Shown here: piece by piece, positions 15,329 through 27,870 of the stretch
How the letters are laid out: the number at the start of each line of letters is the position of its first letter
Position numbering within the stretch: the stretch's first letter is position 1
IMG/VR virus record: IMGVR_UViG_3300046374_000030
Span: 1 to 50,593 of that record
DNA: 50,593 bases
DNA from: a virus
Taxonomy: Duplodnaviria > Caudoviricetes
Strand: one strand, 5' to 3'
The notes under the pieces: generated by a model
Seen by the model: only the letters and a program-made list of their open reading frames with translations
Told to the model about the DNA's origin: nothing
Database searches by the model: none
Made by a program: the position numbers and the translations under genes

Positions 15329-15577
15329 ATGACCACGCTGCTGATCGCGCTGCTGTTCGTCGGGCTGCTCAACTTGGCGTTGGTGGGGCTCGTCGTCTAC
15401 GGGCTGGCGAAGCTGCGTGACGACTTCGGGTTCTGGCAGACCGCGCTGTTCCGCATCGAATGGCACACCGACCCGGGCAAGAAAGACAAGCCGGGGCCGT
15501 GGAAAGCTGACCTGCAGAAATGGCTGGACGAGCACCCGGACCGGCCGCATCGCGACGACCCGCCGTTCGTGAGATGA
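15329..15577 (+). CDS. Small membrane protein
   Basis: N-terminal hydrophobic helix LLIALLFVGLLNLALVGLVVYGL. Confidence 0.65.
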   Translation: MTTLLIALLFVGLLNLALVGLVVYGLAKLRDDFGFWQTALFRIEWHTDPGKKDKPGPWKADLQKWLDEHPDRPHRDDPPFVR

Positions 15578-16248
15578 CCATCGCGGTCGGGATCGTCGCG
15601 CATGACTCCCGCGCCGCGACGGCCCGGGCGCTGCGCCGCGACGTCGGGGCGGTGGCGGTCAACGTCGATGACGGCACGCTGGGGTGTGAAGGCAACCACG
15701 TCGCGGTGCTGCGGGCGTTGGCGTACCGGCACGTCGACTGGTGCGTGGTCCTCGAGGACGACGCACAGCCGGTCCACGACTTCCGGTTCCACGTCAAAGC
15801 GGCGCTGGGATGCGCGCCCGCCCCGATCGTCGGGCTGTACCTGGGCTACAGCGAGAACCCCGGGACGGAGCAGCGCACCGGGCAGGCGGTGCACATGGCG
15901 ATGGAGAACAACTGGGCGTGGATCATCGGGGACTGCCTGGTCGGCAGCGTGGGATACGCGGTGCGTATCCGCCTGGTTAAACCGATGCTGGACGCGGTCG
16001 TGCAGGTCGGCTACGAGTTGCCGCTGCGGATCACCAGGTGGGCGCAGGAGGCCGGGGTCGACATCTGCTATACGGTGCCGTCGCTGGTCGATCACGCCGA
16101 CCTGCCGTCCACGGACTGCACGCTGGACGCCCAGGACATGCCGGCCGTCGAGCGTAAGGCCTGGCAGTTCGGCAAGCGAGACAATTGGGACACTCCGGCG
16201 GTGCCGCTGGGCTACTGCCCCGGCTGGAGCAAACCGCGGGGAGGATGA
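15574..16248 (+). CDS. Glycosyltransferase (mycobacteriophage type)
   Basis: IAVGIVAH..R, LGCEGNH, WCVVLEDDA, VGLYLG, YTVPSLVDHAD motifs. Confidence 0.8.
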   Translation: MTIAVGIVAHDSRAATARALRRDVGAVAVNVDDGTLGCEGNHVAVLRALAYRHVDWCVVLEDDAQPVHDFRFHVKAALGCAPAPIVGLYLGYSENPGTEQRTGQAVHMAMENNWAWIIGDCLVGSVGYAVRIRLVKPMLDAVVQVGYELPLRITRWAQEAGVDICYTVPSLVDHADLPSTDCTLDAQDMPAVERKAWQFGKRDNWDTPAVPLGYCPGWSKPRGG

Positions 16249-16251
16249 GAC

Positions 16252-17139
16252 ATGGGAAAGATCCTGCTGCTGATCATCCTGATCCTGGTGATCGTCGCGA
16301 TGATCTACGCCAGACGCATCAAGAAACGCGCTGCGCGCAAGGCGCGGGTCGCGGCGATCAGCGCCCGCGCCGACGCGGAGAACGAGTTGGTTTTGGCCGG
16401 CGACCCGCGCGGCTTCTTCGGCGACTACCCGATACCTGACCTGGGAAAAGAGCCGGGCCACATGAGCGTGGCCGAAGCCGAGCACCTGCTCCATCCCGAT
16501 AGCAGCCCTGACCCGGCCACTTCGCCGCAGGAATGGGAGGACTGGTCGCAGGCCAAGCTCGACCAGCTGCGCCGCCACGAAGCCGCGACGGCGATGGCGG
16601 CCAAAATCAAAGAGTCGGGCGTCCTGGCTGGCCTCACCACCCACGCGTTCACCGTCCCGGTCACGCCCGGCGAATACGACGCGGTGAAGTTCGACAACGG
16701 GCAGATCGTCGAGTTCCCGTCTGTGAGGATGGGCGCCCCCGGCGACATCGTGGTGAACATGAGCGGCAACGTCAACGAGGTCGCGCACCTGAAAAACCCG
16801 GTGCTGCGTCGCCGTGGCGGTGACTTCGTCGAACCGGGCGCCACCGTCGTCACCAACTGGGGCGGAGAGGTGGTGCGCGTCATGCAGGACAAATACAGCG
16901 GAACCCTGACGGTGGCCGAAGCCCAGATGATGATGGAGAAGGCGAAGCAGCAATTCAATTGGGACCAGGCAGCTTCCGTCGCCGCGAGGTACCGGGCGGC
17001 GTCTGCCCGCAAGGTGGACCTGGAACCGCCGCGGCCCCGCAAACCGACCCCGTCCCGTAAGGCGACCCCGTCCCGCAAGCCAGCCAAGCGTGCCGCGGCC
17101 GCCAAGAAACCACCGATCGGAGAAGCCGAAAGTGCATGA
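16252..17139 (+). CDS. Membrane-anchored protein with basic low-complexity C-terminus
   Basis: N-terminal TM helix; ARADAEN..VLAGDPRG.FG.Y motif; tail RKPTPSRKATPSRKPAKRAAAAKK. Confidence 0.7.
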   Translation: MGKILLLIILILVIVAMIYARRIKKRAARKARVAAISARADAENELVLAGDPRGFFGDYPIPDLGKEPGHMSVAEAEHLLHPDSSPDPATSPQEWEDWSQAKLDQLRRHEAATAMAAKIKESGVLAGLTTHAFTVPVTPGEYDAVKFDNGQIVEFPSVRMGAPGDIVVNMSGNVNEVAHLKNPVLRRRGGDFVEPGATVVTNWGGEVVRVMQDKYSGTLTVAEAQMMMEKAKQQFNWDQAASVAARYRAASARKVDLEPPRPRKPTPSRKATPSRKPAKRAAAAKKPPIGEAESA

Positions 17140-17773
17140 GGGAGCATACAAATTCGTCGAACGCATCGCGGGCCAGTTGGAACCGCGGCGAATGGCCGCG
17201 CGGCACGTGATCGAGTTGGGGTCGCGCACCGTCGCCGGGGACTGGCCCTACTCAGGTCCGGTGCGGCCGCTGTTCGAGGGCGCCGCCTACCTGGGTATCG
17301 ACATGCTGCCCGGCCCGAACGTCGACGTGGTCGCCGACGCCGCGACCTGGCCCGACGTCGGCGGCGGCCCGACTGTCGGCACCGTCGACGGGCTGACCGC
17401 TGCGCGCTGGGCCGACGTCGGCGTCGATATCAGCGCCCAACCCGTATCCGTTTCGCAGCGCACCAACGCTGACACCGTGGTGTGCTGCGAAACCCTGGAA
17501 CACGCCCCGGAGGCGGGGGCGATATGCCACAACGCGCACCGGCTGCTGCGAGCTGGCGGGGTGTTCATCTGCACCGCCGCTGGCGAAGGCCGCGCTCCGC
17601 ATTCGGGCATCGACGGCGGCCCGATCCGCGCGGTCGACACCGACGGCAGCCTGGAGTTTTACCGCAACGTGAGCCGTGACGAGCTGCGGGATTGGTTGCT
17701 GCCGTTCGGGTTTGCGCTGATCGACACTTCCAACCCGGGCGACATCTACGCGATCGCGGTCAAACTCAAATGA
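17132..17773 (+). CDS. Class I SAM-dependent methyltransferase
   Basis: VIELGSR, YLGIDMLPGPNVDVVADA, DTVVCCETLEH, LLRAGGVF. Confidence 0.8.
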   Translation: MHEGAYKFVERIAGQLEPRRMAARHVIELGSRTVAGDWPYSGPVRPLFEGAAYLGIDMLPGPNVDVVADAATWPDVGGGPTVGTVDGLTAARWADVGVDISAQPVSVSQRTNADTVVCCETLEHAPEAGAICHNAHRLLRAGGVFICTAAGEGRAPHSGIDGGPIRAVDTDGSLEFYRNVSRDELRDWLLPFGFALIDTSNPGDIYAIAVKLK

Positions 17774-17980
17774 GGATCGCGTGAACCCGCACACCGACAA
17801 CCCGTCCCAATGGGCAGCGGCCGACGACATCGTGGGAGGCTTCGTCAAAGCGTTGCAGCAGCAGCCGATGCCGACGTCGCAGATCGCGATGCAGCTGCTT
17901 GCTCTCGAGCATCCGCAGCGGCTGATGCTGATGGCGATGATCGCCGCCACCGCGCTGCAGCGGCTCGCCGCGGGCGGATC

Positions 17981-18631
17981 ATGATCCCGGTCACCGCGAT
18001 CATGATCGCCTACAACAACGAGGACAAAGCCCTGGTCCGGCTGCAGCGTGATCTGTTGCCCGCGCTGGACGGTCTGGACGCCGAGCTGATCGTCATCGAC
18101 AACAGCGAAACCACGTCGGTCGAGCTCGCCGACGCGCTGATCACCGCGGAAGTTGAGGGCATCCATACCCGGTATCAGTGGCAGCTGGGCAACAACCTGC
18201 TCTACGGGCCCGCGATCAACGCCGCGGTCAAACTCGCCACCCGGCCGTATCTGCTGTACGTGTGCACCAACCACGGATACAGCCGCGACCCCAGCTGGGC
18301 GACCGACCTGCTGACGCCGCTGGTCGACGACGACACCCGCACCGTCGCGATGACCGGCTGCCTGCAGGCCGCCGGGCCGCCGGAAAACCACGGCTTCCCG
18401 GCCAGCCTGCCGCAGATTCATGTGCAGGGCGGGGTGTTCGCGGCGCGCCGCGACGTGCTGCGCGCCTTCCCCTACCCGGACGGCGAGTACGCGCACTGGG
18501 GTGCGGACATCCACGAATGCTTCGCGCTGATGCACGCCGGGTTCCATCTGGTGAACGTGCCGACCATCACATCGGTGTGGCGCCAGGCCGCCGGCAACGG
18601 GCACTGGAAGTACATCCACGATGAGCCATGA
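17981..18631 (+). CDS. GT-A fold glycosyltransferase-like protein
   Basis: VTAIMIAYN, LIVIDNS, NLLYGPAINAA, HVQGGVFAARR, WGAD. Confidence 0.7.
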   Translation: MIPVTAIMIAYNNEDKALVRLQRDLLPALDGLDAELIVIDNSETTSVELADALITAEVEGIHTRYQWQLGNNLLYGPAINAAVKLATRPYLLYVCTNHGYSRDPSWATDLLTPLVDDDTRTVAMTGCLQAAGPPENHGFPASLPQIHVQGGVFAARRDVLRAFPYPDGEYAHWGADIHECFALMHAGFHLVNVPTITSVWRQAAGNGHWKYIHDEP

Positions 18632-18965
18632 CCTGACCGGGGAGGAGTTCGTCGGCTACATCTTCCAAGGCTCACCGGAGCGCAGGCCGAGGCTGTGGTT
18701 CCTCGAGCGCCAGATCAACACGCTGTTCCTCTACGGCCCGCTGAACACCGCGCGCAAACCGGGACAGAACTCGCTCGACCTGGACGTGGGTCTGTGGACA
18801 CTGGAACCCGTCGAACCGCTGGTCTACATGCGGGGACTGATGCGTTACCAGCACCGCGGTCACGAGCGGTGGTCCGCGGTGTGGCGGCTCACCGACACCG
18901 TCATCCCCCACGTCCACACGTTCGGCTACGACGACGTGTGGCGCCTCGGTGTATGGCCCGATTAG
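18621..18965 (+). CDS. Hypothetical protein ending in WPD
   Basis: Overlaps the upstream stop; ends VWRLGVWPD*. Confidence 0.6.
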   Translation: MSHDLTGEEFVGYIFQGSPERRPRLWFLERQINTLFLYGPLNTARKPGQNSLDLDVGLWTLEPVEPLVYMRGLMRYQHRGHERWSAVWRLTDTVIPHVHTFGYDDVWRLGVWPD

Positions 18966-19100
18966 CTTGCCGTAACACGCAATTCAAACTGGTGTGCTAC
19001 AGATAGACACTCGTGACGTTCGCGATGTTCCTCGGCCTTTCGATGCTGGCGGTGCTCAGCACGGTGCTCCTGTTTGTGCTGACGCGGACCGACGGCAACG

Positions 19101-19379
19101 GTGGCGTGGCGTCGGAAGAAAACGACGACGAGCGACCACAATGAAGCCGTGAACAGCCCGAAATGCCCGGAGTGCCCACACCTGGCGCACCAGCACAACC
19201 TCGACGGCGACGGCAAATGCCGCGTCCGTATCCTCACCGGCTGGGACCACCAAACTAACACCTACACGTCGTGGCGGCCCTGCCCGTGCCCGGGCTTTCA
19301 CGGCGAAGCCACCTGCTGCGCCTGCGAATACGTGCCGACCTCACCGAACTGTGTGCACTGCGGCAAGGTGAAAGTGTGA
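19101..19379 (+). CDS. Cys-rich hypothetical protein
   Basis: Several CxxC/CxC motifs. Confidence 0.55.
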   Translation: MAWRRKKTTTSDHNEAVNSPKCPECPHLAHQHNLDGDGKCRVRILTGWDHQTNTYTSWRPCPCPGFHGEATCCACEYVPTSPNCVHCGKVKV

Positions 19380-20149
19380 CCCGCCGCAAACCGCCGGCCA
19401 CGGTGTGCATCCCGTGGCGGCCCAGCCCCTCACGGATGGACGCCTACCACCGGGTGCTGGAGTTCTGGTGGAAAACCGGGTGGCCGGTGATCCCCGCCGA
19501 CTCGGACACCGAAATCTTCTCCCTGTCGCAGGCCCGCAATAACGCTGTCGCGCAAGCGAAAACAGATGTGGTGGTGATCTGTGACGCCGACACCATCCCC
19601 GACATGACCAACATCCGTGCCGCGGTCGCCGACCCGGTCGGGGTGTGCTGGCCGTTCACGAAATACCGGGTTCTGGCGCCGGAATACCTCGACGTGCCGT
19701 TCAAAAAGTTGGCTGACGTGCCCTACCTCTACGAGTGGGGCGGTGACGGCGCGAACGGGGTGGGCGGCTGCCTGGTCGCCACCACCAGGGAATACTGGCG
19801 CCTCGGCGGGCAGGACCCGGCGTTCATCGGCTGGGGGCACGAAGACACCGCGTTCACCTTCGTCGTGGAAACCCTGTCCACGCTGCGCCGCAGCCCCGGC
19901 AACATCTACGCCTTCGAACACAACACGTCGGCGGTCGGTTACACCGGCGCCAAAGCCGACAGCCCCGGCTGGGACCGCGACTACGGCCGCAACGAGGCGC
20001 TGATGGTGCCCTACCGCACCGCGCGGCACCGGGCGTGGCTGATGCGGGAAGTCATCAAAAACCGCACCGGGCAGGACCCGCTGGGCGACGCGCCGAACCG
20101 CGGTGATCCCGAACTGAACAAGGCTCTGCTGGGAAGATACAAACCATGA
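19376..20149 (+). CDS. Glycosyltransferase (GT2/galactosyltransferase-like)
   Basis: VCIPWR, FSLSQARNNAV, VVICDADT (DxD), GGQDPAFIGWGHED. Confidence 0.85.
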   Translation: MTRRKPPATVCIPWRPSPSRMDAYHRVLEFWWKTGWPVIPADSDTEIFSLSQARNNAVAQAKTDVVVICDADTIPDMTNIRAAVADPVGVCWPFTKYRVLAPEYLDVPFKKLADVPYLYEWGGDGANGVGGCLVATTREYWRLGGQDPAFIGWGHEDTAFTFVVETLSTLRRSPGNIYAFEHNTSAVGYTGAKADSPGWDRDYGRNEALMVPYRTARHRAWLMREVIKNRTGQDPLGDAPNRGDPELNKALLGRYKP

Positions 20150-20604
20150 GCACCAGACGGCGGCTCAGCCCGAAAGAGCGGGCCAAACGGGACGCGTTCA
20201 TCCTGGACCTGTTCGTGGCTGGCAACACCCAGGCGGTGATCGGCGCGCATCCGCAGGTGCAGCTGACCGAAGCCAGGGTGAACCAGATCGTCAAAGCCGA
20301 GCTGGAACGCTGCGCCCAAGACCACATCCTGCGCAACACCAACGCGATGACGATCTACCTGTCGCGGATGGAATACCTGGTCCGCAAGGCGATGGGCCAC
20401 GTCGACGACGGCGACCTGAAAGCGATCGAAGTCACCCGCCGGCTGATGGCCGACCAAGCCAAGATCAACGACCTGGCCGAAGGCCGGGTCAGCGCGGGCC
20501 CGATCCCGCCGATGGGCGACACCGAGCTGGACGACGGGGAGCCGCTCGACGAGCTGGCCGCCTACCGGGCGCAGCGCCGCGAAGTCAAAGCGGAGGGTTC
20601 ATGA
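20146..20604 (+). CDS. Probable terminase small subunit
   Basis: N-terminal HTH-like segment, GDLKAIE helix and C-terminal LDELAAYRAQR, typical of actinophage TerS. Confidence 0.6.
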   Translation: MSTRRRLSPKERAKRDAFILDLFVAGNTQAVIGAHPQVQLTEARVNQIVKAELERCAQDHILRNTNAMTIYLSRMEYLVRKAMGHVDDGDLKAIEVTRRLMADQAKINDLAEGRVSAGPIPPMGDTELDDGEPLDELAAYRAQRREVKAEGS

Positions 20605-20819: not shown

Positions 20820-21071
20820 GCGCGATGGTCGGGGTGATCGCCGGCCTGGTGATCCTGTACTTCCTGGTGGCCGCGCTGCAGAAAAGCGGGCGGCTGCGAT
20901 GACCGAACCCTGTGCTGGCTCGATGACGTTCCCCACCAACTACGACGGCGAAACCACCGTCTGCCCGCGGTGCGGGCGAAGGCTGCGGCTGCACGTCAAC
21001 GGCAAACTTCCCAAGCACAACCGCGAACCGCGCCGCCCCGTCCACCTCGAGCGCGGCACCAGGATCATCGC

Positions 21072-21251
21072 GTGAACGAGGCGCAGCACCGCGCTTCGAT
21101 CAAGGTGGCCGAGGCGCGAAACTGTGTGCACCGCCTCGCATCTGATCTCAGCGAGGCCGAACGCAGGCTCAAACGCGCCGAAGCCAGATTGCGGCGAGAG
21201 ATCCGACTGGACCCCGACGCCTACGCGCAGATTACGGCGGTGAGCGGATGA
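21072..21251 (+). CDS. Small coiled-coil hypothetical protein
   Basis: GTG start after AGGA, heptad-like sequence. Confidence 0.5.
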   Translation: MNEAQHRASIKVAEARNCVHRLASDLSEAERRLKRAEARLRREIRLDPDAYAQITAVSG

Positions 21252-21252
21252 G

Positions 21253-21283
21253 GGTGTCCACCAACGGACACCGCCGCTACACT
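21253..21283 (+). promoter_or_regulatory. Promoter of tRNA block 1 with overlapping GGTGTCC-N6-GGACACC operator
   Basis: Palindrome 21253-21272; -10 TACACT 21278-21283, followed 7 nt later by GTG at 21291 (leaderless geometry). Confidence 0.6.
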
Positions 21284-21290
21284 GTGTGAC

Positions 21291-21344
21291 GTGCACGCCC
21301 GCCGATTACTGCGATCACGTTCCTCCTTGCGACTTAGTCGCTAA
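21291..21344 (+). CDS. Leader peptide 1 (MHARRLLRSRSSLRLSR) for the Ser/Leu tRNA block
   Basis: Leu codons TTA, CTG, TTG, CTT and Ser codons TCA, TCC, TCC, AGT; stops 3 nt before tRNA-Ser. Confidence 0.7.
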   Translation: MHARRLLRSRSSLRLSR

Positions 21345-21347
21345 CCA

Positions 21348-21430
21348 GGAGGGTGATCCCGGCCGGGCTGGGGCTTCTCTGCTAAGGAATGCGCGGCATT
21401 GTCCGTGGTGTCCGACTCACCCGCCCTCCG
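21348..21430 (+). tRNA. tRNA-Ser(GCT)
   Basis: Acceptor GGAGGGT/GCCCTCC, loop CT-GCT-AA, long variable arm, atypical T loop. Confidence 0.75.
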
Positions 21431-21434
21431 CTGA

Positions 21435-21521
21435 GGAAGATGAAGCAGTGGCGAGTGCCGCGACCGGCGTCGAATACCGGGTCCGCTTAACCGCGGTGGG
21501 GATCAAGACCTCCGTCTTCCA
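21435..21521 (+). tRNA. tRNA-Ser(CGA), atypical
   Basis: Acceptor GGAAGAT/GTCTTCC, loop GT-CGA-AT, long variable arm, T loop ATCAAGA. Confidence 0.65.
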
Positions 21522-21525
21522 CGAA

Positions 21526-21599
21526 GCCGTCGTAGCCCAACCGGCAGAGGCACTGGTCCCAGAAGCCAGACAGTGCGGGTTCGAATCCCGCGGGCGGCA
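21526..21599 (+). tRNA. tRNA-Leu(CAG)
   Basis: CTGGT-CC-CAG-AA-GCCAG, GGTTCGAATCC, short variable loop. Confidence 0.85.
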
Positions 21600-21600
21600 C

Positions 21601-21674
21601 GCTCCCGTAGTCCAACCGGCAGAGGCAGCGGCATGAGGTGCCGTCCAGTGTGCGTTCGAATCGCACCGGGAGTA
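21601..21674 (+). tRNA. tRNA-Leu(GAG)
   Basis: GCGGC-AT-GAG-GT-GCCGT, TTCGAAT T loop. Confidence 0.85.
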
Positions 21675-21675
21675 C

Positions 21676-21749
21676 GCACCCTTAGCCCAAACGGGAGAGG
21701 CATCCGGCTCAAACCCGGTCCAGTCTCGGTTCGAATCCGAGAGGGTGTA
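21676..21749 (+). tRNA. tRNA-Leu(CAA)
   Basis: CCGG-CT-CAA-AC-CCGG, GGTTCGAATCC. Confidence 0.85.
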
Positions 21750-21750
21750 C

Positions 21751-21823
21751 GCGCTCCTAGCCCAACGGGAGAGGCAGCCGGTTTAAGCCCGGTCCAGTCT
21801 CGGTTCAAATCCGAGGGGGCGCA
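21751..21823 (+). tRNA. tRNA-Leu(TAA)
   Basis: GCCGG-TT-TAA-GC-CCGGT, GGTTCAAATCC. Confidence 0.85.
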
Positions 21824-22218
21824 CCCACCGTCATCTTGTAGGTGCGGATCGCGTCGCTGGAGGCGCGCATCATCAGCACCGCCTCATCGCGGCTGACCGC
21901 CGACCGGTTGCCGCCGACCTGCAACCAGAACTTGTCGGGGATCTGCGGGTGAATCCACACCCGCCAGCGCAGCTCCGGATGGTCAATCGAATGCATCGCG
22001 GCCAGCCAGCGTAACCGCTCCAACGGCGACGCACCCTCGGGGCAGGGCGGCTGGACGGTCGGCCCGTACGCCGGGTCGTCGGGATGAACCCACCGCAGCT
22101 GCGGCGGCTCATACTCGGCCAGCGCCGCGAAGAACGCCTGGTCGTCGCGCCGCGACTGACCCCACCGCTCGTCATCCGGCGCAACGGTCTCCCACTTCAG
22201 GCCCTGCGGTTGTGTCAT
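21805..22218 (-). CDS. Hypothetical protein inserted antisense within the tRNA array
   Basis: ATG at 22218 (MTQPQGLKWE...), 137 aa; stop lies antisense to the T arm of tRNA-Leu(TAA). Confidence 0.6.
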   Translation of the reverse strand: MTQPQGLKWETVAPDDERWGQSRRDDQAFFAALAEYEPPQLRWVHPDDPAYGPTVQPPCPEGASPLERLRWLAAMHSIDHPELRWRVWIHPQIPDKFWLQVGGNRSAVSRDEAVLMMRASSDAIRTYKMTVGAPPRI

Positions 22219-22222
22219 GCGT

Positions 22223-22423
22223 TTAGGCGACGCTGATGGAGCTGGCGGTGGTGGTGACGTTGCTTTCCCAGTGGTCTCCGCTGGTGACGCCTGAGACGCT
22301 TTTGAGCCAGTTGTGCAGTTGCAGCACGGTGCAGGGTGTGGTGAGTGCGGGGTGAGTGACGGGCCGGTGGGCCAGTTGTTCGGCGCTGGCTTTTTCTTCG
22401 GGCATGGGGTCATCATCGCCCAC
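22223..22423 (-). CDS. Small hypothetical protein in the same insert
   Basis: 66-aa ORF ending 4 nt before the next ATG. Confidence 0.5.
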   Translation of the reverse strand: MGDDDPMPEEKASAEQLAHRPVTHPALTTPCTVLQLHNWLKSVSGVTSGDHWESNVTTTASSISVA

Positions 22424-22498
22424 GGTGGATGTTGTGGGGTTGCGGCGCGCCGTGTCCTAGACGATGCAGCGTTCCACCCGGCGGCTCAGCAAACCCGA

Positions 22499-22527
22499 CA
22501 GTCTCGGTTCAAATCCGAGGGGCGCAC
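22499..22527 (+). repeat. Copy of the tRNA-Leu(TAA) 3' half (att-like direct repeat or tRNA remnant)
   Basis: CAGTCTCGGTTCAAATCCGAGGGGCGCAC matches 21795-21824 except for one missing G. Confidence 0.8.
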
Positions 22528-22542
22528 GCTACAATGACCACC

Positions 22543-22578
22543 ATGTTCTTCGCCCCACGACCGTATCCCTGGCGCTAG
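22543..22578 (+). CDS. Leader peptide 2 (MFFAPRPYPWR) for the Pro/Trp/Tyr tRNA block
   Basis: -10 TACAAT at 22530-22535, ATG 7 nt later; codons CCA, CCG, CCC, TAT, TGG. Confidence 0.7.
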   Translation: MFFAPRPYPWR

Positions 22579-22611
22579 CCGCCCGGTCGTGACAACACGC
22601 CCGGGATCAAA

Positions 22612-22685
22612 CCGGGTGTAGGCCAACTTGGTAGGCCACCTGCTTTGGGAGCAGGAGACTGGGCGTTCGAATCGCTCCTCCCGGA
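22612..22685 (+). tRNA. tRNA-Pro(TGG)
   Basis: CCTGC-TT-TGG-GA-GCAGG, GTTCGAATC. Confidence 0.85.
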
Positions 22686-22689
22686 CGAA

Positions 22690-22761
22690 GGGGACTTCGC
22701 CAAGTGGGAAGGCAGCGGCTTCCAAACCCGCCACGACTGGGTTCGATTCCTAGAGTCCTCG
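22690..22761 (+). tRNA. tRNA-Trp(CCA)
   Basis: GCGGC-TT-CCA-AA-CCCGC, GGTTCGATTCC, G73. Confidence 0.8.
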
Positions 22762-22762
22762 C

Positions 22763-22843
22763 GCCGGCACATCCCATGTGGTGAGGGAAGCAGACTGTAA
22801 ATCTGTGGCTTCGGCTGTGTAGGTTCGACCCCTGCTGCCGGTA
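22763..22843 (+). tRNA. tRNA-Tyr(GTA)
   Basis: GCAGA-CT-GTA-AA-TCTGT, variable arm GGCTTCGGCT. Confidence 0.85.
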
Positions 22844-23032
22844 CGATCAGCGCAGCAGAGATGGGCGCCTGCCACGCGGCCCGGCTACGATTCCTGGGCT
22901 TCACCGTGATCCCTCGTCGGGGAGATGCCCACCCGGTACGATCAACGAGCAGAGATGGGCGCCTGCCATTGAAAGCCAGCCGGGTAACCGTGACGTGGTC
23001 GTAGGTGATCCCCCAGCGGGGAGACGCCCGCC
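22838..23032 (+). repeat. Tandem duplicated promoter/leader unit, each copy starting ATG-GGC-GCC-TGC-CAY
   Basis: Two units of about 95 bp: CCGGTACGATCA..AGCAGAGATGGGCGCCTGCCA...GTGATCCC..GGGGAGA(T/C)GCCC. Confidence 0.8.
22955..22972 (+). CDS. Leader peptide 3 (MGACH) for the Cys/His/Gly/Ala tRNAs
   Basis: ATG GGC GCC TGC CAT TGA downstream of TACGAT (22937-22942). Confidence 0.6.
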   Translation: MGACH

Positions 23033-23085
23033 TACGAAAAATGGGTGGACCGAACGCGGGCCAACCGTTTACCGTGGTACACAGT

Positions 23086-23156
23086 GCGCTGGTGACCGAG
23101 TGGTCAGGTGGCAGGCTGCAAACCTGTTCAGGCTGGTTCGATTCCAGTCCGGCGCT
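23086..23156 (+). tRNA. tRNA-Cys(GCA)
   Basis: GCAGG-CT-GCA-AA-CCTGT, U73. Confidence 0.9.
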
Positions 23157-23157
23157 C

Positions 23158-23235
23158 GGTAGTCGTAGCTCAATGCGGCAGAGCGCCGGGATGTGGCCCC
23201 GGAGGTTGAGGGTTCGGACCCCTTCGATTACCCCA
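23158..23235 (+). tRNA. tRNA-His(GTG)
   Basis: CCGGG-AT-GTG-GC-CCCGG, G-1/C73, encoded CCA. Confidence 0.9.
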
Positions 23236-23306
23236 GCGGGTGTGGCGTAGTGGCCGCGCACCAGACTTCCAATCTGGCAACGCAGGTTCGATTCCTGTCA
23301 TCCGCT
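23236..23306 (+). tRNA. tRNA-Gly(TCC)
   Basis: CCAGA-CT-TCC-AA-TCTGG, U73. Confidence 0.9.
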
Positions 23307-23385
23307 CGACATCGCCCTCGTGGTCGCCAGAGGAGTAAGGCTGGTCAATCCGCGTAAAGCCGAGGCGAAGCTAATATCGGCACCT

Positions 23386-23458
23386 GGGGTTGTAGCTCAG
23401 CTGGTAGAGCGCCTGCCTTGCAAGCAGGAGGCCCGGGGTTCGATTCCCCGCTGCTCCA
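23386..23458 (+). tRNA. tRNA-Ala(TGC)
   Basis: CCTGC-CT-TGC-AA-GCAGG, G3:U70. Confidence 0.92.
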
Positions 23459-23459
23459 C

Positions 23460-23532
23460 GCCTTGATAGCTCAGTTGGTAGAGCGCCCGCCTGAAGAGTG
23501 GGAGGCCCGAGGTTCGATCCCTCGTCCTGGCA
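23460..23532 (+). tRNA. tRNA-Phe(GAA)
   Basis: CCCGC-CT-GAA-GA-GTGGG. Confidence 0.9.
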
Positions 23533-23536
23533 CTTG

Positions 23537-23608
23537 GCCCTGCTAGCTCAATGGGAGAGCGTCCGTTTCACACGCGGAAGGCACGAGGATCGTAACCTCG
23601 GTGGGGCA
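23537..23608 (+). tRNA. tRNA-Val(CAC)
   Basis: TCCGT-TT-CAC-AC-GCGGA, T loop ATCGTAA. Confidence 0.85.
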
Positions 23609-23609
23609 C

Positions 23610-23681
23610 GTCCTGTTAGCTCAGCGGCAGAGCGCCGGCACGACACGCCGGAGGCCCGAAGTTCGATCCTTCGACGGGACA
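23610..23681 (+). tRNA. tRNA-Val(GAC)
   Basis: CCGGC-AC-GAC-AC-GCCGG (C33). Confidence 0.85.
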
Positions 23682-23682
23682 C

Positions 23683-23751
23683 ATGATGCGAACGCGAACC
23701 GATCAGGGGCGGCGAAAGCCGACACGTCGCCCTGATTCCGCGCGTCCGTAG
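23683..23751 (+). CDS. Leader peptide 4 (MMRTRTDQGRRKPTRRPDSARP) for the Lys/Thr/Gly/Asp tRNAs
   Basis: ATG 1 nt after tRNA-Val; codons ACG, ACC, ACA, AAG, GAT x2, GGG; stop inside tRNA-Lys (nt 8-10). Confidence 0.6.
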   Translation: MMRTRTDQGRRKPTRRPDSARP

Positions 23752-23817
23752 CTCAGTCGGTAGAGCTGTTGCCTCTTAAGCATCAGGTCGAAGGTTCGAT
23801 CCCTTCCGGGCGCACCA
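23742..23817 (+). tRNA. tRNA-Lys(CTT)
   Basis: Loop CT-CTT-AA, encoded CCA. Confidence 0.9.
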
Positions 23818-23818
23818 G

Positions 23819-23893
23819 GCCGTTGTCGCACACGTTGGCTTGTGCACCTGCCTTGTAAGCAGACTTACGCGGGTTCGATTCCTGTCAGCGGCT
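23819..23893 (+). tRNA. tRNA-Thr(TGT)
   Basis: CTGC-CT-TGT-AA-GCAG, GGTTCGATTCC. Confidence 0.85.
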
Positions 23894-23941
23894 CGTTATG
23901 ATAAGCGCATCAGCGAAGCGCACCACGAAGGAAAGGCGATC

Positions 23942-24163
23942 ATGTCGCAGGAACAAGAGCAGGAAACGGCCAGCGCCGAGCAGCGACTGGAAGCCGACCC
24001 GGCGCTGGAGCCCGAGCTGGCGCACGAGCGCGACGAAGGTGCGGCCGAAGCAGCCGAAACCGCAGCCGAGGACGCGGCGTACTCCGGTTCCGGTGCGCTG
24101 TCGGCGTCCGCGGTCGCGGGCGCGGACGACGAAGCCGCGGACGAGGCCGCTGAGGACGCGTAG
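23942..24163 (+). CDS. Small highly acidic, Ala/Glu-rich protein
   Basis: GAAGGAAAGG RBS; MSQEQEQETA...DEAADEAAEDA, 73 aa. Confidence 0.7.
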   Translation: MSQEQEQETASAEQRLEADPALEPELAHERDEGAAEAAETAAEDAAYSGSGALSASAVAGADDEAADEAAEDA

Positions 24164-24193
24164 CTTGTCAGACCGTCGCCTTAAAGTTCGGGT

Positions 24194-24553
24194 GTGGCAA
24201 TCAGCCAAGCCAAAAAGACGCAGCAAGCCCGCTGGAGAAATGAGAACCGCACGTTCCTACGTCAGATCAATCGCAAACGACGCCTAGCGATCAAAGGTGA
24301 AGCTCTCGATCACTATGGATGGGAATGTGCGGAGTGCGGATTCGACAACCCAATGGCTCTCGTCATAGATCACGTCGATGACAACGGTGCGGATGAGCGG
24401 AGGGATTTAGGCGGGCGGCATTATGCGGGCTGGAACTTCTACAGCTACCTGAAGCGCCTCGGCTGGCCGGAGGGATATCAGACGCTTTGCGCGAACTGTA
24501 ACATGATCAAACAGCAGCTCAGGCTGCAAGGCACCTGTGGTCTAGCGGTATGA
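24194..24553 (+). CDS. HNH endonuclease
   Basis: CAECG...LVIDHVDDNG...YQTLCANCN; stop overlaps tRNA-Gly(GCC). Confidence 0.85.
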   Translation: MAISQAKKTQQARWRNENRTFLRQINRKRRLAIKGEALDHYGWECAECGFDNPMALVIDHVDDNGADERRDLGGRHYAGWNFYSYLKRLGWPEGYQTLCANCNMIKQQLRLQGTCGLAV

Positions 24554-24602
24554 CACCTGCTTGCCATGCAGGAGATCGCGGGTTCGATTCCCGTCGGGTG
24601 CT
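24531..24602 (+). tRNA. tRNA-Gly(GCC)
   Basis: CCTGC-TT-GCC-AT-GCAGG, U73. Confidence 0.9.
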
Positions 24603-24603
24603 C

Positions 24604-24616
24604 GTTGTTTGATAAC
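24604..24616 (+). promoter_or_regulatory. BoxA-like antitermination element
   Basis: GTTGTTTGATAAC resembles the mycobacterial rrn BoxA (GTTGTTTGAGAAC) and sits in an AT-rich tRNA spacer. Confidence 0.5.
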
Positions 24617-24629
24617 AACTAAACATCAT

Positions 24630-24701
24630 GGCTCTGTAGCTCAGTGGTAGAGCGCCGGCCCGTCAAGCCGGAGGTCGAGGGATCGTTCCCCTTCAGGGTC
24701 G
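24630..24701 (+). tRNA. tRNA-Asp(GTC)
   Basis: CCGGC-CC-GTC-AA-GCCGG (C33), G73, T loop ATCGTTC. Confidence 0.85.
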
Positions 24702-24702
24702 C

Positions 24703-24750
24703 ATGTTGATACGGGCGCGACGAATTAGGCAGCGGCGACAAAGCCGCTGA
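24703..24750 (+). CDS. Leader peptide 5 (MLIRARRIRQRRQSR) for the Ile/Arg/Arg/Arg/Gln tRNAs
   Basis: ATG 1 nt after tRNA-Asp; 11 of 14 codons after the start are Ile, Arg or Gln. Confidence 0.7.
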   Translation: MLIRARRIRQRRQSR

Positions 24751-24759
24751 TTTCGTCAT

Positions 24760-24831
24760 GCCCGTCTAGCTCACCGGTAGAGCACCGATCTGATAAGTCG
24801 TAGGCACCAGGTTCAATTCCTGGGTCGGGCA
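24760..24831 (+). tRNA. tRNA-Ile(GAT)
   Basis: CGAT-CT-GAT-AA-GTCG, GGTTCAATTCC. Confidence 0.85.
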
Positions 24832-24832
24832 C

Positions 24833-24907
24833 GCCTTCATAGCTCAGTCTGGACAGAGCACCGGTCTACGGAGCCGGGTGTCGCAGGTTCGAATCCTGCT
24901 GGGGGCA
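24833..24907 (+). tRNA. tRNA-Arg(ACG)
   Basis: CCGGT-CT-ACG-GA-GCCGG. Confidence 0.9.
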
Positions 24908-24908
24908 C

Positions 24909-25005
24909 GCCGCTGTGGCTGAACGGATAAGCGCCCGCCTCCTAAGCGGGTTAGGCAACCGGCTTCTACCCGGTGAATATGCAGGTTCGAATCCTGTCAG
25001 CGGCA
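24909..25005 (+). tRNA. tRNA-Arg(CCT) with a 30-nt variable region
   Basis: CCCGC-CT-CCT-AA-GCGGG; variable region 24951-24980. Confidence 0.8.
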
Positions 25006-25008
25006 CAA

Positions 25009-25079
25009 GCCTTCGCCAGCGGATCTGGCCCTGAGTTTCCGAAGCTCGGCGTGCGGTGGTTCGACTCCACTCGGGGGCA
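25009..25079 (+). tRNA. tRNA-Arg(CCG), atypical D arm
   Basis: CTGAGT-TT-CCG-AA-GCTCGG, GGTTCGACTCC; no U8/N9 linker. Confidence 0.7.
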
Positions 25080-25083
25080 CTGG

Positions 25084-25156
25084 TGAGCCGTTGGGTAACT
25101 GGCATCCCGCCGCGCTTTGGTCGCGGATATTGCACGTTCGAATCGTGCCGGCTCAG
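25084..25156 (+). tRNA. tRNA-Gln(TTG)
   Basis: U1:A72, CCGCG-CT-TTG-GT-CGCGG, G73. Confidence 0.85.
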
Positions 25157-25167
25157 CTATGCTGCTT

Positions 25168-25189
25168 GGGTGTCCATTCGCGGACACCC
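25168..25189. promoter_or_regulatory. Palindromic operator-like site GGGTGTCC-N6-GGACACCC
   Basis: Same half-sites and 6-nt spacer as the sites at 11642, 21253 and 37147. Confidence 0.55.
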
Positions 25190-25210
25190 CGAGCACGGAA
25201 GGAGCCTGAG

Positions 25211-25270
25211 ATGCGACAGCACAAACCGGAGCCTGAACGCATGAATCAGGCGTCCGTAGCTCAGCGGTAG
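25211..25270 (+). CDS. Leader peptide 6 (MRQHKPEPERMNQASVAQR) for the Lys/Glu/Glu/Asn/Gln/Met tRNAs
   Basis: RBS GGAAGGAG at 25197-25204; codons AAA, GAG, GAA, ATG, AAT, CAG; runs into tRNA-Lys. Confidence 0.7.
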   Translation: MRQHKPEPERMNQASVAQR

Positions 25271-25321
25271 AGCTGTTGCCTTTTAAGCATCAGGTCGGGG
25301 GTTCGATCCCCTCCGGGCGCA
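25250..25321 (+). tRNA. tRNA-Lys(TTT)
   Basis: Loop CT-TTT-AA; near-identical to tRNA-Lys(CTT). Confidence 0.9.
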
Positions 25322-25325
25322 CGCT

Positions 25326-25397
25326 GGTCCCATGAGGTAGCGGCTAGCCTGCGAGATTTTCACTCTCGTCGTTCGGGTTCGATTCCCGGTGGGACTG
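25326..25397 (+). tRNA. tRNA-Glu(TTC)
   Basis: CGAGA-TT-TTC-AC-TCTCG. Confidence 0.88.
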
Positions 25398-25412
25398 CGG
25401 AGGCGCGTTGTG

Positions 25413-25523
25413 ATGAAACGGCTCAAAGCTTTGCTGCGGCCGCACCTGTATTCGCTTTGGCGATGGACGTGGGCCGAGGACGAAGACGACGACGAAGACG
25501 ACGACGAAGCTGGATTGGTGTAA
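25413..25523 (+). CDS. 36-aa peptide with an acidic run between the two tRNA-Glu genes
   Basis: GGAGG RBS; MKRLKALLRPHLYSLWRWTWAEDEDDDEDDDEAGLV; stop inside tRNA-Glu(CTC). Confidence 0.5.
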   Translation: MKRLKALLRPHLYSLWRWTWAEDEDDDEDDDEAGLV

Positions 25524-25580
25524 CCGGGAGCACAGCGGATTCTCAGTCCGCCAGCGCGGGTTCGAGCCCCGTATCCAGTG
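25509..25580 (+). tRNA. tRNA-Glu(CTC)
   Basis: GCGGA-TT-CTC-AG-TCCGC. Confidence 0.88.
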
Positions 25581-25584
25581 CTGA

Positions 25585-25657
25585 TGGTCTGTAGCACAAC
25601 CGGCAGTGCGCTCGGCTGTTAACCGAGTGGTTGAAGGTTCGAATCCTTCCAGGCCAG
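25585..25657 (+). tRNA. tRNA-Asn(GTT)
   Basis: CTCGG-CT-GTT-AA-CCGAG, G73. Confidence 0.92.
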
Positions 25658-25661
25658 CGAA

Positions 25662-25733
25662 TGAGGTGTGGTCCAACCGGCACGACTCTGGGTTCTGGTC
25701 CCGGCAATCTAGGTTCAAATCCTGGCACCTCAG
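25662..25733 (+). tRNA. tRNA-Gln(CTG)
   Basis: U1:A72, CTGGG-TT-CTG-GT-CCCGG. Confidence 0.88.
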
Positions 25734-25737
25734 CGGA

Positions 25738-25813
25738 TGCAGGGTAGGGAAGTCTGGTCTATCCCTGCGGCCTCATAAGCCGTAAATCGCGGGTTCGAAT
25801 CCCGCCCCTGCAA
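25738..25813 (+). tRNA. tRNA-Met(CAT), initiator versus elongator uncertain
   Basis: GCGGC-CT-CAT-AA-GCCGT; fMet-like T arm, but paired U1:A72 and no full GGG/CCC run. Confidence 0.85.
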
Positions 25814-25817
25814 CGAG

Positions 25818-25973
25818 ATGGCCGGATTGACGGTGCGACTGATCACGCCACAGCCGCTGCCCAAGGCGGATGAATGGTGGGACGAGGTGACGCTGTGCCG
25901 GGTCGAGCGTGTCGACGAGGGCTACAGCTACACCGCCCGGCTGGACGGACGCAGGATTACGCGTAACGCGTAA
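25818..25973 (+). CDS. Small hypothetical protein
   Basis: 51-aa ORF MAGLTVRLITPQ... directly after tRNA-Met. Confidence 0.4.
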   Translation: MAGLTVRLITPQPLPKADEWWDEVTLCRVERVDEGYSYTARLDGRRITRNA

Positions 25974-26020
25974 TGCGACACGCCGCGGAAATGCTTGACA
26001 GCGTCCACGGCAAACTTGCG

Positions 26021-26059
26021 GCGTGTCTGCGCCGGCCACGGTAAACATCGCGTGACCAT
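26021..26059 (+). promoter_or_regulatory. Candidate late promoter upstream of the terminase operon
   Basis: GCGTGTC...CCACGGTAAAC-N7-GACCAT. Confidence 0.55.
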
Positions 26060-26065
26060 GACCTC

Positions 26066-26275
26066 GTGCGCGGGTTGTTGTGCGACGCGCTTGCTGCTGT
26101 CTTGAGGGCGCTGACCGCGCCGCTGAGGAAAGTCATCAGCGACGCGATCGCCGACGCCCGTGACCGCGCCACCCGCGAGGACATCGCCGCCGCGCTGGTG
26201 TCGGCGACGTGGACCGCCAAGGATGACGAGGCGTTCGACCAAGCGTTCGGCGAATATTTGCAGGAGCCGGAGTGA
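26066..26275 (+). CDS. Small hypothetical protein
   Basis: GTGA overlap with the TerL start. Confidence 0.5.
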   Translation: MRGLLCDALAAVLRALTAPLRKVISDAIADARDRATREDIAAALVSATWTAKDDEAFDQAFGEYLQEPE

Positions 26276-27870
26276 GCGCCGTCCTTGAGGCCGATCCCGA
26301 GGTCGGCTCCACGCTGCCACGGCTGTTCACCCCGCCGCTGCCCGAGCACGTCGACCCCGACGCCGAATGGGGCATCAAACCCGAAGCCACCTGGGGTCCG
26401 CTGTGCTGCGACTTTTTGGAACGCATCCTGAAATGGAAGCTGCTGCCCTGGCAGAAGTGGCTGTACTACCGGGCGCTGGAAAAGCGTAGGAACGGAACAG
26501 GTTTCAGGTTCCGCTACCTGATCGTGCTGGTGGCGCGGCAGAACGGGAAGACGAAGTGGGGGATGGGGCTGGGGCTGTGGCGGCTGTTCATGGACAAGCA
26601 CGGCCGCGCCGACCCGGATTGGCCGGCGGCCAAGCTCGCCGTCGTGGCGGCGCAGAACTTGGATTACGCCGAGACCACCCTCAAGGAAGTCGTCGACGAG
26701 ATCCGCGACCAGCCGCTGCTGGCGCCGGAACTGTTGAACCACAAGGTGACCAACGGCAAGCACCGCGCGATCCTGTCGTATCGGCGGCTGTGGCGCGCCG
26801 CGACAGCGAACAAGAAGGGGGCGCGGTCGCTGTCGGTGGATTTCGCGTGGCTCGACGAGCTGCGCACCCACACCACCCCGGACGCCTGGAACGCTGTCAC
26901 CCCGACCACCAACGTCCGCATCTGCGCGCAGGTGCTCGCCACCTCCAACGCCGGGGAAAACACCAGCGTCAAACTCAAGGAGCTGCGCCAGGCCGCGGTC
27001 CGCAAGATCACCGTCGGCGACACCGCCGACACGCAGACCGGGTTCTTCGAATGGAGCGTGCCCGACGAGGTGGACCCGCGCGACGACTCCTACTGGTATC
27101 TGGCGAATCCCGCGCTGGGGCTGCTCAACGAGTTCTGCCTGGACGATCTGCGGGCGCATTTCGAGACGATGGAAGCCGACGATATGCCCGGCTTCCGCAC
27201 CGAGTATCTGTGCCAGTGGGTGGACGCGCTCAAGCCCGGCATCCTGCCCGCGCAGGCGTGGGCCGACACCATCGACAAGGAATCGAAGCGGGCCGAGAAC
27301 TCGCCGGTGTACGCCTGCATCGAGTACAACTACCACCGCACCCGCGCCTACGTCGGGATCGCCGCCCGGCGCGCTGACGGCAAGACCCACATCGAAGTCC
27401 TCAAAACCCCGGCCAAGGGCGTCGACTGGCTCCCCGAATGGCTGCGCCCACGCAAAGAAAAGTTCGCCGGCATCTGCATCCAAAAGACCGGCGCGCCGGC
27501 TTCGGGGCTGGCTGACGATCTGCGGGCCCAGGGCTTCACGATCATCGACTGGGGCTCCCCGGTGGCGCAGCTCGCCGCCGGCGCCGGCGACTTCTACGAC
27601 GGGCTGGTCAACGGCACCATCAAACACCGGCCCGCCTTGGTGCTGGACAAGGCCGCCGCGTCCACCCCGGCCCGCACCATCGGCGACGCCTGGTTTTTCG
27701 ACCGCCGCCACTCCCCGGTGGACGCGTCCCCGGTAATCGCGGTCTGCGGCGCGGCGTGGCTGCTGAACAACCCGCCGCCACCGGTCGGCCCGGCGACGGT
27801 GTGGGAATGGCCCGACGACGACACCCTCGACGAATGGCGGAAGGAAGCCGATGACCGATTCAACGAGTAA
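26272..27870 (+). CDS. terL: Terminase large subunit
   Basis: LLPWQ, Walker A VARQNGKT, Walker B FAWLDELR, TSNAG, FFEWS, ANPALG, C-terminal nuclease (VDA). Confidence 0.95.
   Translation: MSAVLEADPEVGSTLPRLFTPPLPEHVDPDAEWGIKPEATWGPLCCDFLERILKWKLLPWQKWLYYRALEKRRNGTGFRFRYLIVLVARQNGKTKWGMGLGLWRLFMDKHGRADPDWPAAKLAVVAAQNLDYAETTLKEVVDEIRDQPLLAPELLNHKVTNGKHRAILSYRRLWRAATANKKGARSLSVDFAWLDELRTHTTPDAWNAVTPTTNVRICAQVLATSNAGENTSVKLKELRQAAVRKITVGDTADTQTGFFEWSVPDEVDPRDDSYWYLANPALGLLNEFCLDDLRAHFETMEADDMPGFRTEYLCQWVDALKPGILPAQAWADTIDKESKRAENSPVYACIEYNYHRTRAYVGIAARRADGKTHIEVLKTPAKGVDWLPEWLRPRKEKFAGICIQKTGAPASGLADDLRAQGFTIIDWGSPVAQLAAGAGDFYDGLVNGTIKHRPALVLDKAAASTPARTIGDAWFFDRRHSPVDASPVIAVCGAAWLLNNPPPPVGPATVWEWPDDDTLDEWRKEADDRFNE

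Follow-up and report, generated by a model that had tools for sequence, protein, structure and literature searches.

The reason why phages carry transfer RNA (tRNA) genes has stayed open for more than 50 years, the current proposal being that they offset host defenses that cleave tRNAs (PMC10264068). The locus analyzed here raises the question of whether such genes could be held silent and released block by block when the matching tRNAs run short. The window, that is, the whole 50.6-kb virus record IMGVR_UViG_3300046374_000030, carries an array of 31 tRNA genes, and a first-pass annotation made from the sequence alone had claimed that each of six blocks in it is headed by a tiny open reading frame (ORF) rich in codons for that block. 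The small ORFs that it named are all present with the peptides it gave (21291-21344, 22543-22578, 22955-22972, 23041 onward, 23683-23751, 24703-24750, and 25211-25270). The codon match held for blocks 1, 2, 4 (as a Lys/Thr block), 5, and 6, and it was lost for the Cys block and for Gly/Asp; the array is made up of five units with leaders and two without (Cys-Val and Gly/Asp). Judged from sequence comparison, the five leaders are very probably functional sensors of some kind that are read by the ribosome. It is reasonably likely that what they sense is a shortage of tRNA and that stalling on them controls the folding of the first tRNA of each block.

Leaders and their match to the tRNA blocks

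The leaders, tRNA units, start signals, switch spacer, tandem copies, promoter-like sites, 73-amino-acid and HNH ORFs, and terminase gene of the window lie on the + strand, each leader peptide given in full below ends at a stop codon, and the tRNAs were placed with ARAGORN, aided in block 5 by eye and by folding. Leader 1 (MHARRLLRSRSSLRLSR, 21291-21344) contains the Leu codons TTA, CTG, TTG, and CTT and the Ser codons TCA, TCC, TCC, and AGT, and it precedes Ser(GCT), Ser(CGA), and Leu(CAG, GAG, CAA, TAA) (block 1, 21348-21825). Leader 2 (MFFAPRPYPWR, 22543-22578) stands before Pro(TGG), Trp(CCA), and Tyr(GTA) (block 2, 22612-22844), and leader 4 (MMRTRTDQGRRKPTRRPDSARP, 23683-23751), the stop of which falls within tRNA-Lys, before Lys(CTT) and Thr(TGT) (block 4, 23742-23894). 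Leader 5 (MLIRARRIRQRRQSR, 24703-24750) is followed by Ile(GAT), Arg(ACG), Arg(CCT), Arg(CCG), and Gln(TTG) (block 5, 24760-25157), and leader 6 (MRQHKPEPERMNQASVAQR, 25211-25270), which extends into tRNA-Lys(TTT), by Lys(TTT), Glu(TTC), Glu(CTC), Asn, Gln(CTG), and Met (block 6, 25250-25814).

Leaders 1 and 2 start exactly 7 nucleotides (nt) past a TANNNT hexamer, which is the leaderless type at the level of sequence: the -10-like TACACT (21278-21283) lies 7 nt 5' of the GTG of leader 1, a predicted leaderless start, and TACAAT (22530-22535) 7 nt 5' of the ATG of leader 2. Such an arrangement, with the start just after the -10 hexamer, is common in mycobacteria (10.1101/834739). Leaders 4 to 6 of the window begin otherwise. 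For leaders 4 and 5, a single C separates the start codon from the discriminator base of the preceding tRNA (tRNA-Val and tRNA-Asp, respectively), and the start falls where the first base of the next tRNA would stand; leader 6 has a -10-like TATGCT and the Shine-Dalgarno sequence AGGAG (25158-25204). Nearly no tRNA gene of the array encodes CCA; most end in the discriminator and one C, and the next tRNA follows directly.

The match between leaders and blocks exceeded chance in several comparisons. When the leaders of blocks 1, 2, 4, 5, and 6 were permuted over the blocks, a test that the first-pass annotation had proposed, the true assignment was the best of 120 in the window and in the related loci L001 and L002, and the best of 24 in the related genome G001 (195 kb); the assignments were scored both by anticodon coverage and by the fraction of leader codons read by the block. 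In dinucleotide-shuffled spacers from which the best ORF could be chosen freely, matches as good arose in 249, 652, 1096, 53, and 158 of 5000 shuffles for leaders 1, 2, 4, 5, and 6, with a combined Fisher p of 0.001 over six spacers, the Cys block included (831 of 5000). Furthermore, we applied a rule blind to codon content, framed after the leaders of the window were known, that called for TANNNT, 6-7 nt, ATG or GTG, 4-30 codons, and an end near a tRNA. The rule found 21 matches in 18 stretches of the window's family and of cluster C mycobacteriophages, and 19 of them contain all amino acids of the tRNAs that follow, Met aside. Mean block coverage was 0.96 versus 0.46 when permuted, a value reached in none of 100,000 permutations and in none when 11 representatives were used. 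Outside the array, the same rule gave no match in 44,793 nt of the + strand of the window, and on six other elements with 91 tRNAs it gave two, neither of them codon-matched. It missed leader 1 of the window and the Ser leader of Myrna, both through artefacts of tRNA calling.

A search of related arrays for such ORFs, also put forward in the first-pass annotation, showed that the five leaders are kept in frame and covary with the content of their blocks; the frames before the Cys block are not kept. In L001, L002, and L005, the tRNA bodies often differ in sequence and the leaders are maintained with frame-preserving insertions and deletions, such as the 3-nt insertion in leader 6 of all three. 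The frame persists while the type of start (leaderless or Shine-Dalgarno), the start and stop codons, and the -10 sequence vary, and the peptides are poorly conserved outside their cognate residues. The spacing from the -10 hexamer to the start of leader 1 is identical in L001, L002, ET08, Lukilu, G005, and G006. The start signal of leader 2 is TACCGT in L001, TATGAT in L002, and a Shine-Dalgarno sequence in G001; leader 4 of G001 has a -10 hexamer of its own (TATGGT, +7), and the counterparts at leader 6 are TATACT in L002 and TACGAT in L005.

Rearrangements of the array were accompanied by changes in the leaders. Leader 5 of the window, followed by Ile and Arg(CCT), has two Ile codons and no AGA, while its counterpart in L001, L002, and L005, which sits after Ile and before Arg(TCT), has AGA and no Ile codon. 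In the rearranged array of G001, an Asn-Gln-Met-Arg-Ile-Arg-Gln-Arg-Arg-Lys block lies behind a different leaderless frame, MLKAIRQRRNPRQQ, which covers eight of the nine scored anticodons of that block.

The leader codons are mostly single and varied synonymous codons, not runs, a composition that would fit the sensing of a lost tRNA species better than that of amino acid starvation, since extra tRNA would not cure starvation. CGA accounts for 11 of the 79 codons in the leaders, an enrichment of about 50-fold over the 2.6 per 1000 of phage genes, and often stands directly before a cognate codon. In L001, L002, and L005, the Arg(ACG) gene is located upstream of leader 5.

Predicted coupling of leader translation to tRNA folding

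The first-pass annotation had also claimed that in five of six blocks the leader RNA can pair with the 5' acceptor strand of the first tRNA. This pairing is supported, as the own partner of leaders 1, 2, 4, 5, and 6 ranked 3, 3, 1, 3, and 10 among the 31 tRNA 5' ends of the array (Fisher p 0.01), and it is weaker than the codon match. In all 30 of 30 related units, the predicted leader-tRNA interaction was stronger than the average synonymous recoding, and in 28 of 30 it was stronger than the average base shuffle, with Fisher p values (recodings/shuffles) of 0.0002/0.003 for the window and 0.002/0.02 for cluster C1, and of 0.0001 for G001. The partner bases in the leader change along with nt 7-9 of tRNA-Ser; an alignment of the Ser leaders with MAFFT was too poor for counting pairs.

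We modeled the folding of the nascent RNA in ViennaRNA, sliding a mask the size of a ribosome over the leader. In these models, the free leader forms a long rod, the outer stem of which captures the 5' acceptor strand of the first tRNA (partner, tRNA nt 1-14), and an inner hairpin lies over or near the last codons of each leader of the window. In unit 1 of the window, the acceptor stem had a probability of 0.00 with the leader free, of 0.94-1.00 for ribosome positions TTA through AGT, and of 0.00 once the ribosome stood at the stop codon. The same off/on/off profile was obtained for units 4, 5, and 6 of the window and units 1 and 7 of G001; the off state at the stop codon is largely geometric. 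The Pro unit was modeled as a four-segment switch with a predicted switch spacer (22579-22611), in which segment 2 pairs either with CGACCG of the leader or with segment 3, and segment 3 pairs with nt 1-8 of tRNA-Pro. Here nt 1-7 of the tRNA were masked at 1.00 when the leader was free or the ribosome was at the stop codon; placing the ribosome on CCG, TAT, CCC, and TGG lowered this to 0.51, 0.31, 0.10, and 0.00, respectively. The acceptor values of the Pro-tRNAs of L002, Myrna, and G006 were left out because their acceptor ends were misassigned.

These models suggest how the leaders may work. By default, an untranslated leader would pair with the 5' acceptor strand of the first tRNA and keep the unit off, and a ribosome that reached the stop codon would also keep it off by covering that strand or, in the Pro unit, by restoring the blocking hairpin. 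If the host tRNA for a leader codon were cleaved or uncharged, the ribosome would stall there, and a ribosome parked in mid-leader would free the acceptor strand. The folded first tRNA could then be cut out by RNase P, with the rest of the block transcribed and matured, while a misfolded precursor would be lost through polarity, by way of Rho or of decay. For leaders 4 and 5, translation would begin from the 5' end left by processing of the preceding tRNA; RNase Z of mycobacteria has been reported to cut directly after the discriminator base (PMC10673834), and such a cut would therefore leave them a 5'-C-AUG end, the translation of which we infer. The idea that stalling frees the first tRNA was already part of the first-pass annotation, and conservation, covariation with the blocks, and the folding models argue for it, applied to five units instead of six blocks. 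More tentatively, and with some doubt on our side, this could amount to a "maturation attenuation", a third output of ribosome-mediated attenuation in which the stalled ribosome sets tRNA folding and excision, a bank of modules replaces just those host tRNAs that were destroyed, and each processed tRNA yields a leaderless message that serves as the test for the following block.

Several observations weigh against the control of first-tRNA folding by stalling. Nothing in the sequence accounts for the silencing of tRNAs 2-6 of a block, and each leader lists the whole block though only the first tRNA is masked, which the sequence leaves unexplained; we suppose polarity, which has been shown downstream of Ms5788A (10.1101/834739). 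In full-length folds, loss of the acceptor stem does not discriminate, as 39-72 of 100 shuffled leaders of the window did likewise. In units 1 and 4 of L002, a free leader does not keep the tRNA from folding, and the model is poor for the Pro leaders of cluster C, where Bxz1 opens at upstream codons only and ET08 hardly at all. It fails or is ambiguous for unit 1 of Lukilu, for the main, Gln/Asn, and Lys units of G005, and, at the Asn and Gln codons, for the Gln/Asn unit of G006. On the side of the codons, leader 1 of three genomes has no TCG for Ser(CGA), and the match of anticodons beyond that of amino acids reaches no more than borderline values: 21 of 22 anticodons are matched, with p 0.05-0.07 for the window, 0.02 for G001, and up to 0.17 for L002. 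The related genomes are non-independent samples. Finally, RNA run X1 (share 0.19, one study) contained exact contigs at 21936-22086, 23305-23491, and 23987-24691 and five pieces in the head genes, and none of the exact pieces listed spans a leader; the run consists of contigs that carry no strand, starts, or level and may include DNA carry-over.

The control of whole blocks would be explained if the leaders were codon-matched stalling sensors whose output is transcription termination at the inner hairpin, acting as a U-poor intrinsic terminator, with the pairing to the tRNA incidental. The position of that hairpin near the last codons of each leader of the window agrees with this, as do the hairpins with a T/C-rich tail after the Pro leaders of Myrna and G006, the only two leaders of that kind, and the TTCTTC that follows the Gln/Asn hairpin of G005. 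However, a consensus scan of the region found terminator-like sites at chance level (4 versus 3.6 expected), none of them closing a leader hairpin of the window, and the leader-tRNA pairing stands above recoded controls and tracks the identity of the first tRNA, so that we regard termination as rather unlikely. The abundance of CGA noted above would also suit general stress sensors like that of whiB7, in which any slow ribosome would open every block, with little specificity gained from the codon match. The whiB7 upstream ORF (uORF) responds to many kinds of amino acid and tRNA loss (PMC10274678), and the modeled on window covers many noncognate codons. Nevertheless, leader content follows block content through rearrangements, which a general sensor would not need, and this makes such an explanation improbable.

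Translation of the leaders might instead serve another purpose, with the passage of the ribosome acting as a folding chaperone for the tRNA or with minigenes or their peptides draining cognate tRNAs. Several frames do reach or enter the first tRNA, and cluster C arrays include a peptidyl-tRNA hydrolase gene. However, a chaperone needs no cognate codons, the peptides are poorly conserved beyond the cognate residues, and there is no evident gain in draining tRNAs that the phage itself supplies; we hold this to be very improbable. Chance ORFs picked post hoc from GC-rich spacers do account for the candidates before the Cys block, which shuffles equal and relatives do not conserve, and the single-spacer p values of the other leaders are modest (0.01-0.22), with one codon-blind match in the window (25170) that does not fit its block. 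For the five leaders, chance is nevertheless scarcely credible: the assignment test and the permutations under the codon-blind rule largely refute it, the frame persists both in a siphovirus-type lineage and in cluster C, and new leaders accompany new blocks. Ribosome-read sensing of tRNA shortage, with folding of the first tRNA as its output, is the reading that we carry forward.

Relation to known attenuators and cultured phages

Classical transcription attenuators with leader peptides are those of trp, his, thr, and ilv. The leaders described here resemble this class, represented by the M. tuberculosis ilvB1 uORF (PMC13236596), in having a short ORF rich in cognate codons, and the predicted multivalent sensing would be like that of ilv; alternative structures set by ribosome position are predicted for most units of the window and for G001, with a poor fit in several cluster C-type units. 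They differ in that the leaders of the window have no closing hairpin followed by a U-tract, in that tRNA genes and not biosynthetic enzymes would be controlled, and in that several leaders are spread along one array. The mycobacterial Ms5788A polycysteine attenuators (10.1101/834739) share the leaderless short ORF (sORF), the absence of a terminator, and, as predicted here, the long duplex with a downstream element that stalling would free, and polarity. In contrast, the element masked there is the Shine-Dalgarno sequence of a protein gene and the sensor is a run of a single amino acid, whereas here the predicted target is a tRNA acceptor strand, several amino acids are mixed, and the products are tRNAs. 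As read here, the system would function like both leaderless-sORF and classical attenuators, yet it misses one defining feature of each, the Shine-Dalgarno target and the terminator, respectively.

Other likenesses are partial. The whiB7 attenuator is also an actinobacterial uORF that senses stalling, including that after loss of a tRNA or synthetase, but it is one general sensor with an antiterminator before a transcription factor and has no block-by-block matching (PMC10274678). The Anabaena trn operon, a functional parallel whose mechanism differs from the one proposed here, is a mobile-type tRNA array that stays silent until translation is impaired (PMC8421152). It is controlled by direct repeats in the promoter and a repressor protein (TrcR, PMC10272220), all tRNAs together, and neither "leader" nor "attenuat" is found in the accessible part of PMC8421152. 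Of the 40 Rfam matches listed for 21000-26200 at E values up to 1, none was a T-box, and only tRNAs stood above the Rfam cut-off.

Counterparts were also found in cultured phages. Cluster C arrays of group G4 (PMC5966550, PMC10264068) have a similar order of isotypes (Ser/Leu; Pro-Trp-Tyr; Cys-His and onward) and counterparts of the Ser/Leu and Pro leaders; the word "leader" is absent from the accessible part of PMC5966550, and the cluster C leaders are unannotated in the database records examined. Leaderless leaders of the MFARLSLSSSLRLS type precede Ser/Leu tRNAs in ET08, Bxz1, Lukilu, and Myrna. Also leaderless are the Pro/Trp/Tyr leaders that occur in ET08, Bxz1, Tonenili, Melpomini, Spud, and Myrna and the MRTSSQQNRQQ frame that precedes Gln/Asn tRNAs in Khaleesi, SmallFry, and Shifa. 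Further variants are present in G005 and G006, with MRRYK before a lone Lys(TTT) in G005. Most of the main array of cluster C has no leader of its own, and the arrays of TyDawg, BRock, pCBMA213_1, Fezzik, Phoebe, and Guillaume have no matching leaders. In G005 (L064), G006 (L067), and Myrna (L051), the leader of the long main array (MFTTADTTRG...YRPWH...) contains most amino acids that the array serves. It lacks Ser and Asn, and the tRNAs for these two sit in other blocks with their own leaders; this leader is intermediate between block-specific leaders and leaders with all amino acids.

A search of the literature, to which subscription journals were mostly outside coverage, found no description of leader-peptide control of tRNA genes. 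The present work contributes the evidence from rearrangement, the codon-blind test, the terminator-free design of acceptor masking, and cultured phages with counterparts. If the reading is true, a phage whose tRNA blocks stay silent unless a ribosome stalls on the codons they match would argue strongly that phage tRNAs answer depletion and not codon bias, and the leaders would amount to a list of the tRNAs that are attacked. Moreover, tRNA genes, and possibly RNA maturation, would join the targets of leader peptides, and the leaders would offer compact codon-specific sensors. The Ser-leader stretch of ET08 is at least 80% covered in 206 of 240 matching records (duplicates included). These 206 are cluster C-type records of phages for which M. 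smegmatis mc2 155 is mostly the growth host, so that the role of the Ser/Leu leader is testable in existing strains.

Units without a leader and the setting of the array

The Cys-Val unit comprises Cys, His, Gly(TCC), Ala, Phe, Val(CAC), and Val(GAC) (23086-23682), and relatives show no conserved leader before it. What is conserved before tRNA-Cys is a promoter-like TGGACC-17/18-TACC(G/C)T, in the window TGGACC-18-TACCGT (23046-23075), just 5' of the tRNA and also present in L001 and L002. It overlaps the MGGPNAG frame (MGGPNAGQPFTVVHS), which we rejected as a leader: the peptide corresponds to the opening 15 codons of a frame that is 69 codons long, and this frame is not kept, its start being ATC in L001 and the distance from the start to TTTACC one base shorter in L002. 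The MGACH candidate was rejected as well. Its two frames (22861-23004 and 22955-22972) belong to two diverged tandem copies of a structured element (22845-23036), an insert specific to the window, upstream of the promoter-like site and missing from L001 and G001. The longer copy, the 47-codon MGACHAARLRFLGFTV frame, is the one equaled by 831 of 5000 shuffles, and it may have a role specific to the window.

Gly(GCC) and Asp(GTC) (24531-24702) had been counted among the targets of leader 4. This was rejected because a second conserved promoter-like site, TATGAT followed by the conserved TCAGCGAAGCGC (23897-23921), lies after tRNA-Thr in the window, L001, L002, and G001. Judging by this sequence, the site likely marks a separate unit for Gly(GCC)/Asp, and leader 4, being separated from it, is best read as a Lys/Thr leader. 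In these four sequences, TCAGCGAAGCGC (23910-23921 in the window) stands about 7 nt past the -10-like hexamer and before Gly(GCC) or an inserted ORF; it was absent from the four cluster C-type arrays searched. After this site, the window holds a 73-amino-acid acidic ORF with no Pfam match (23942-24163), one of two small ORFs with acidic tracts inside the array (the other, 25413-25523, overlaps the start of Glu(CTC)), and an HNH endonuclease ORF (24194-24553), the 3' end of which overlaps tRNA-Gly(GCC).

The count of 31 tRNAs given by the first-pass annotation was confirmed. ARAGORN called 28 with default settings and recovered Ser(CGA) and Ser(GCT) with lowered thresholds, and Arg(CCG) (about 25009-25079) was identified by eye in the window and has a called homologue in L002. 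A call of uncertain identity ("???") at 24909 showed a CCT anticodon loop on folding. Downstream of the array lie the genes for terminase (large subunit, 26272-27870), portal, protease, and capsid. Upstream are an ORF matching PHROG 645 ("RNase E", 20146-20604) and glycosyltransferase and methyltransferase genes within 13189-20149; in Typha and Hilltopfarm, an "RNaseE" gene adjoins the terminase.

The terminase is about 50% identical to its nearest named relatives, those of mycobacteriophages such as Typha and Bipper, from which an actinobacterial host is presumed, and it is not of the cluster C type. Among 18 terminase loci, L001, L002/L003/L007, and L005 have the array, and 11 lack it in the available sequence, which for several reaches too short a distance upstream. 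No array was found within 10 kb of upstream sequence in L012, L013, L014, L015, and L017, and because these relatives without the array have a terminase identity of 70-78%, the regulated array would be a patchy module. The whole array was matched in no named phage or plasmid by sequence search. Bacterial genomes yielded no terminase relative and two pattern matches, both without arrays, and L034-L038 (five of the six matches of one pattern) and L025 have no tRNA array.

Further elements lie between the tRNAs. An insert after Leu(TAA) (21826-22527) has at its end, at about 22498-22527, a repeated 3' half of the Leu(TAA) gene, which resembles a remnant of integration or duplication at a tRNA. 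Structured spacers at 22845-23036 of the window and at 6311-6409 and 7409-7483 of L002 end in a GC-rich hairpin and a closing stem. Copy 1 of the window and both elements of L002 have a CTACG loop like the anticodon loop of Arg(ACG), and the ET08 spacer before tRNA-Met shares CTACGGAT; these CTACG-loop elements, which have no Rfam match in the window, are possibly tRNA-like small RNAs or decoys. A two-hairpin spacer always lies between Gly(TCC) and Ala (23308-23385 in the window; also in L001, L002, and G001), with a sequence that differs by lineage, and an exact contig of the RNA run covers it. Near-perfect AT-rich hairpins run between Arg(TCT) and Arg(CCG) in L005 (438-516), L001 (6336-6366), and L002 (7934-7962), and these are possibly decoy or operator palindromes.

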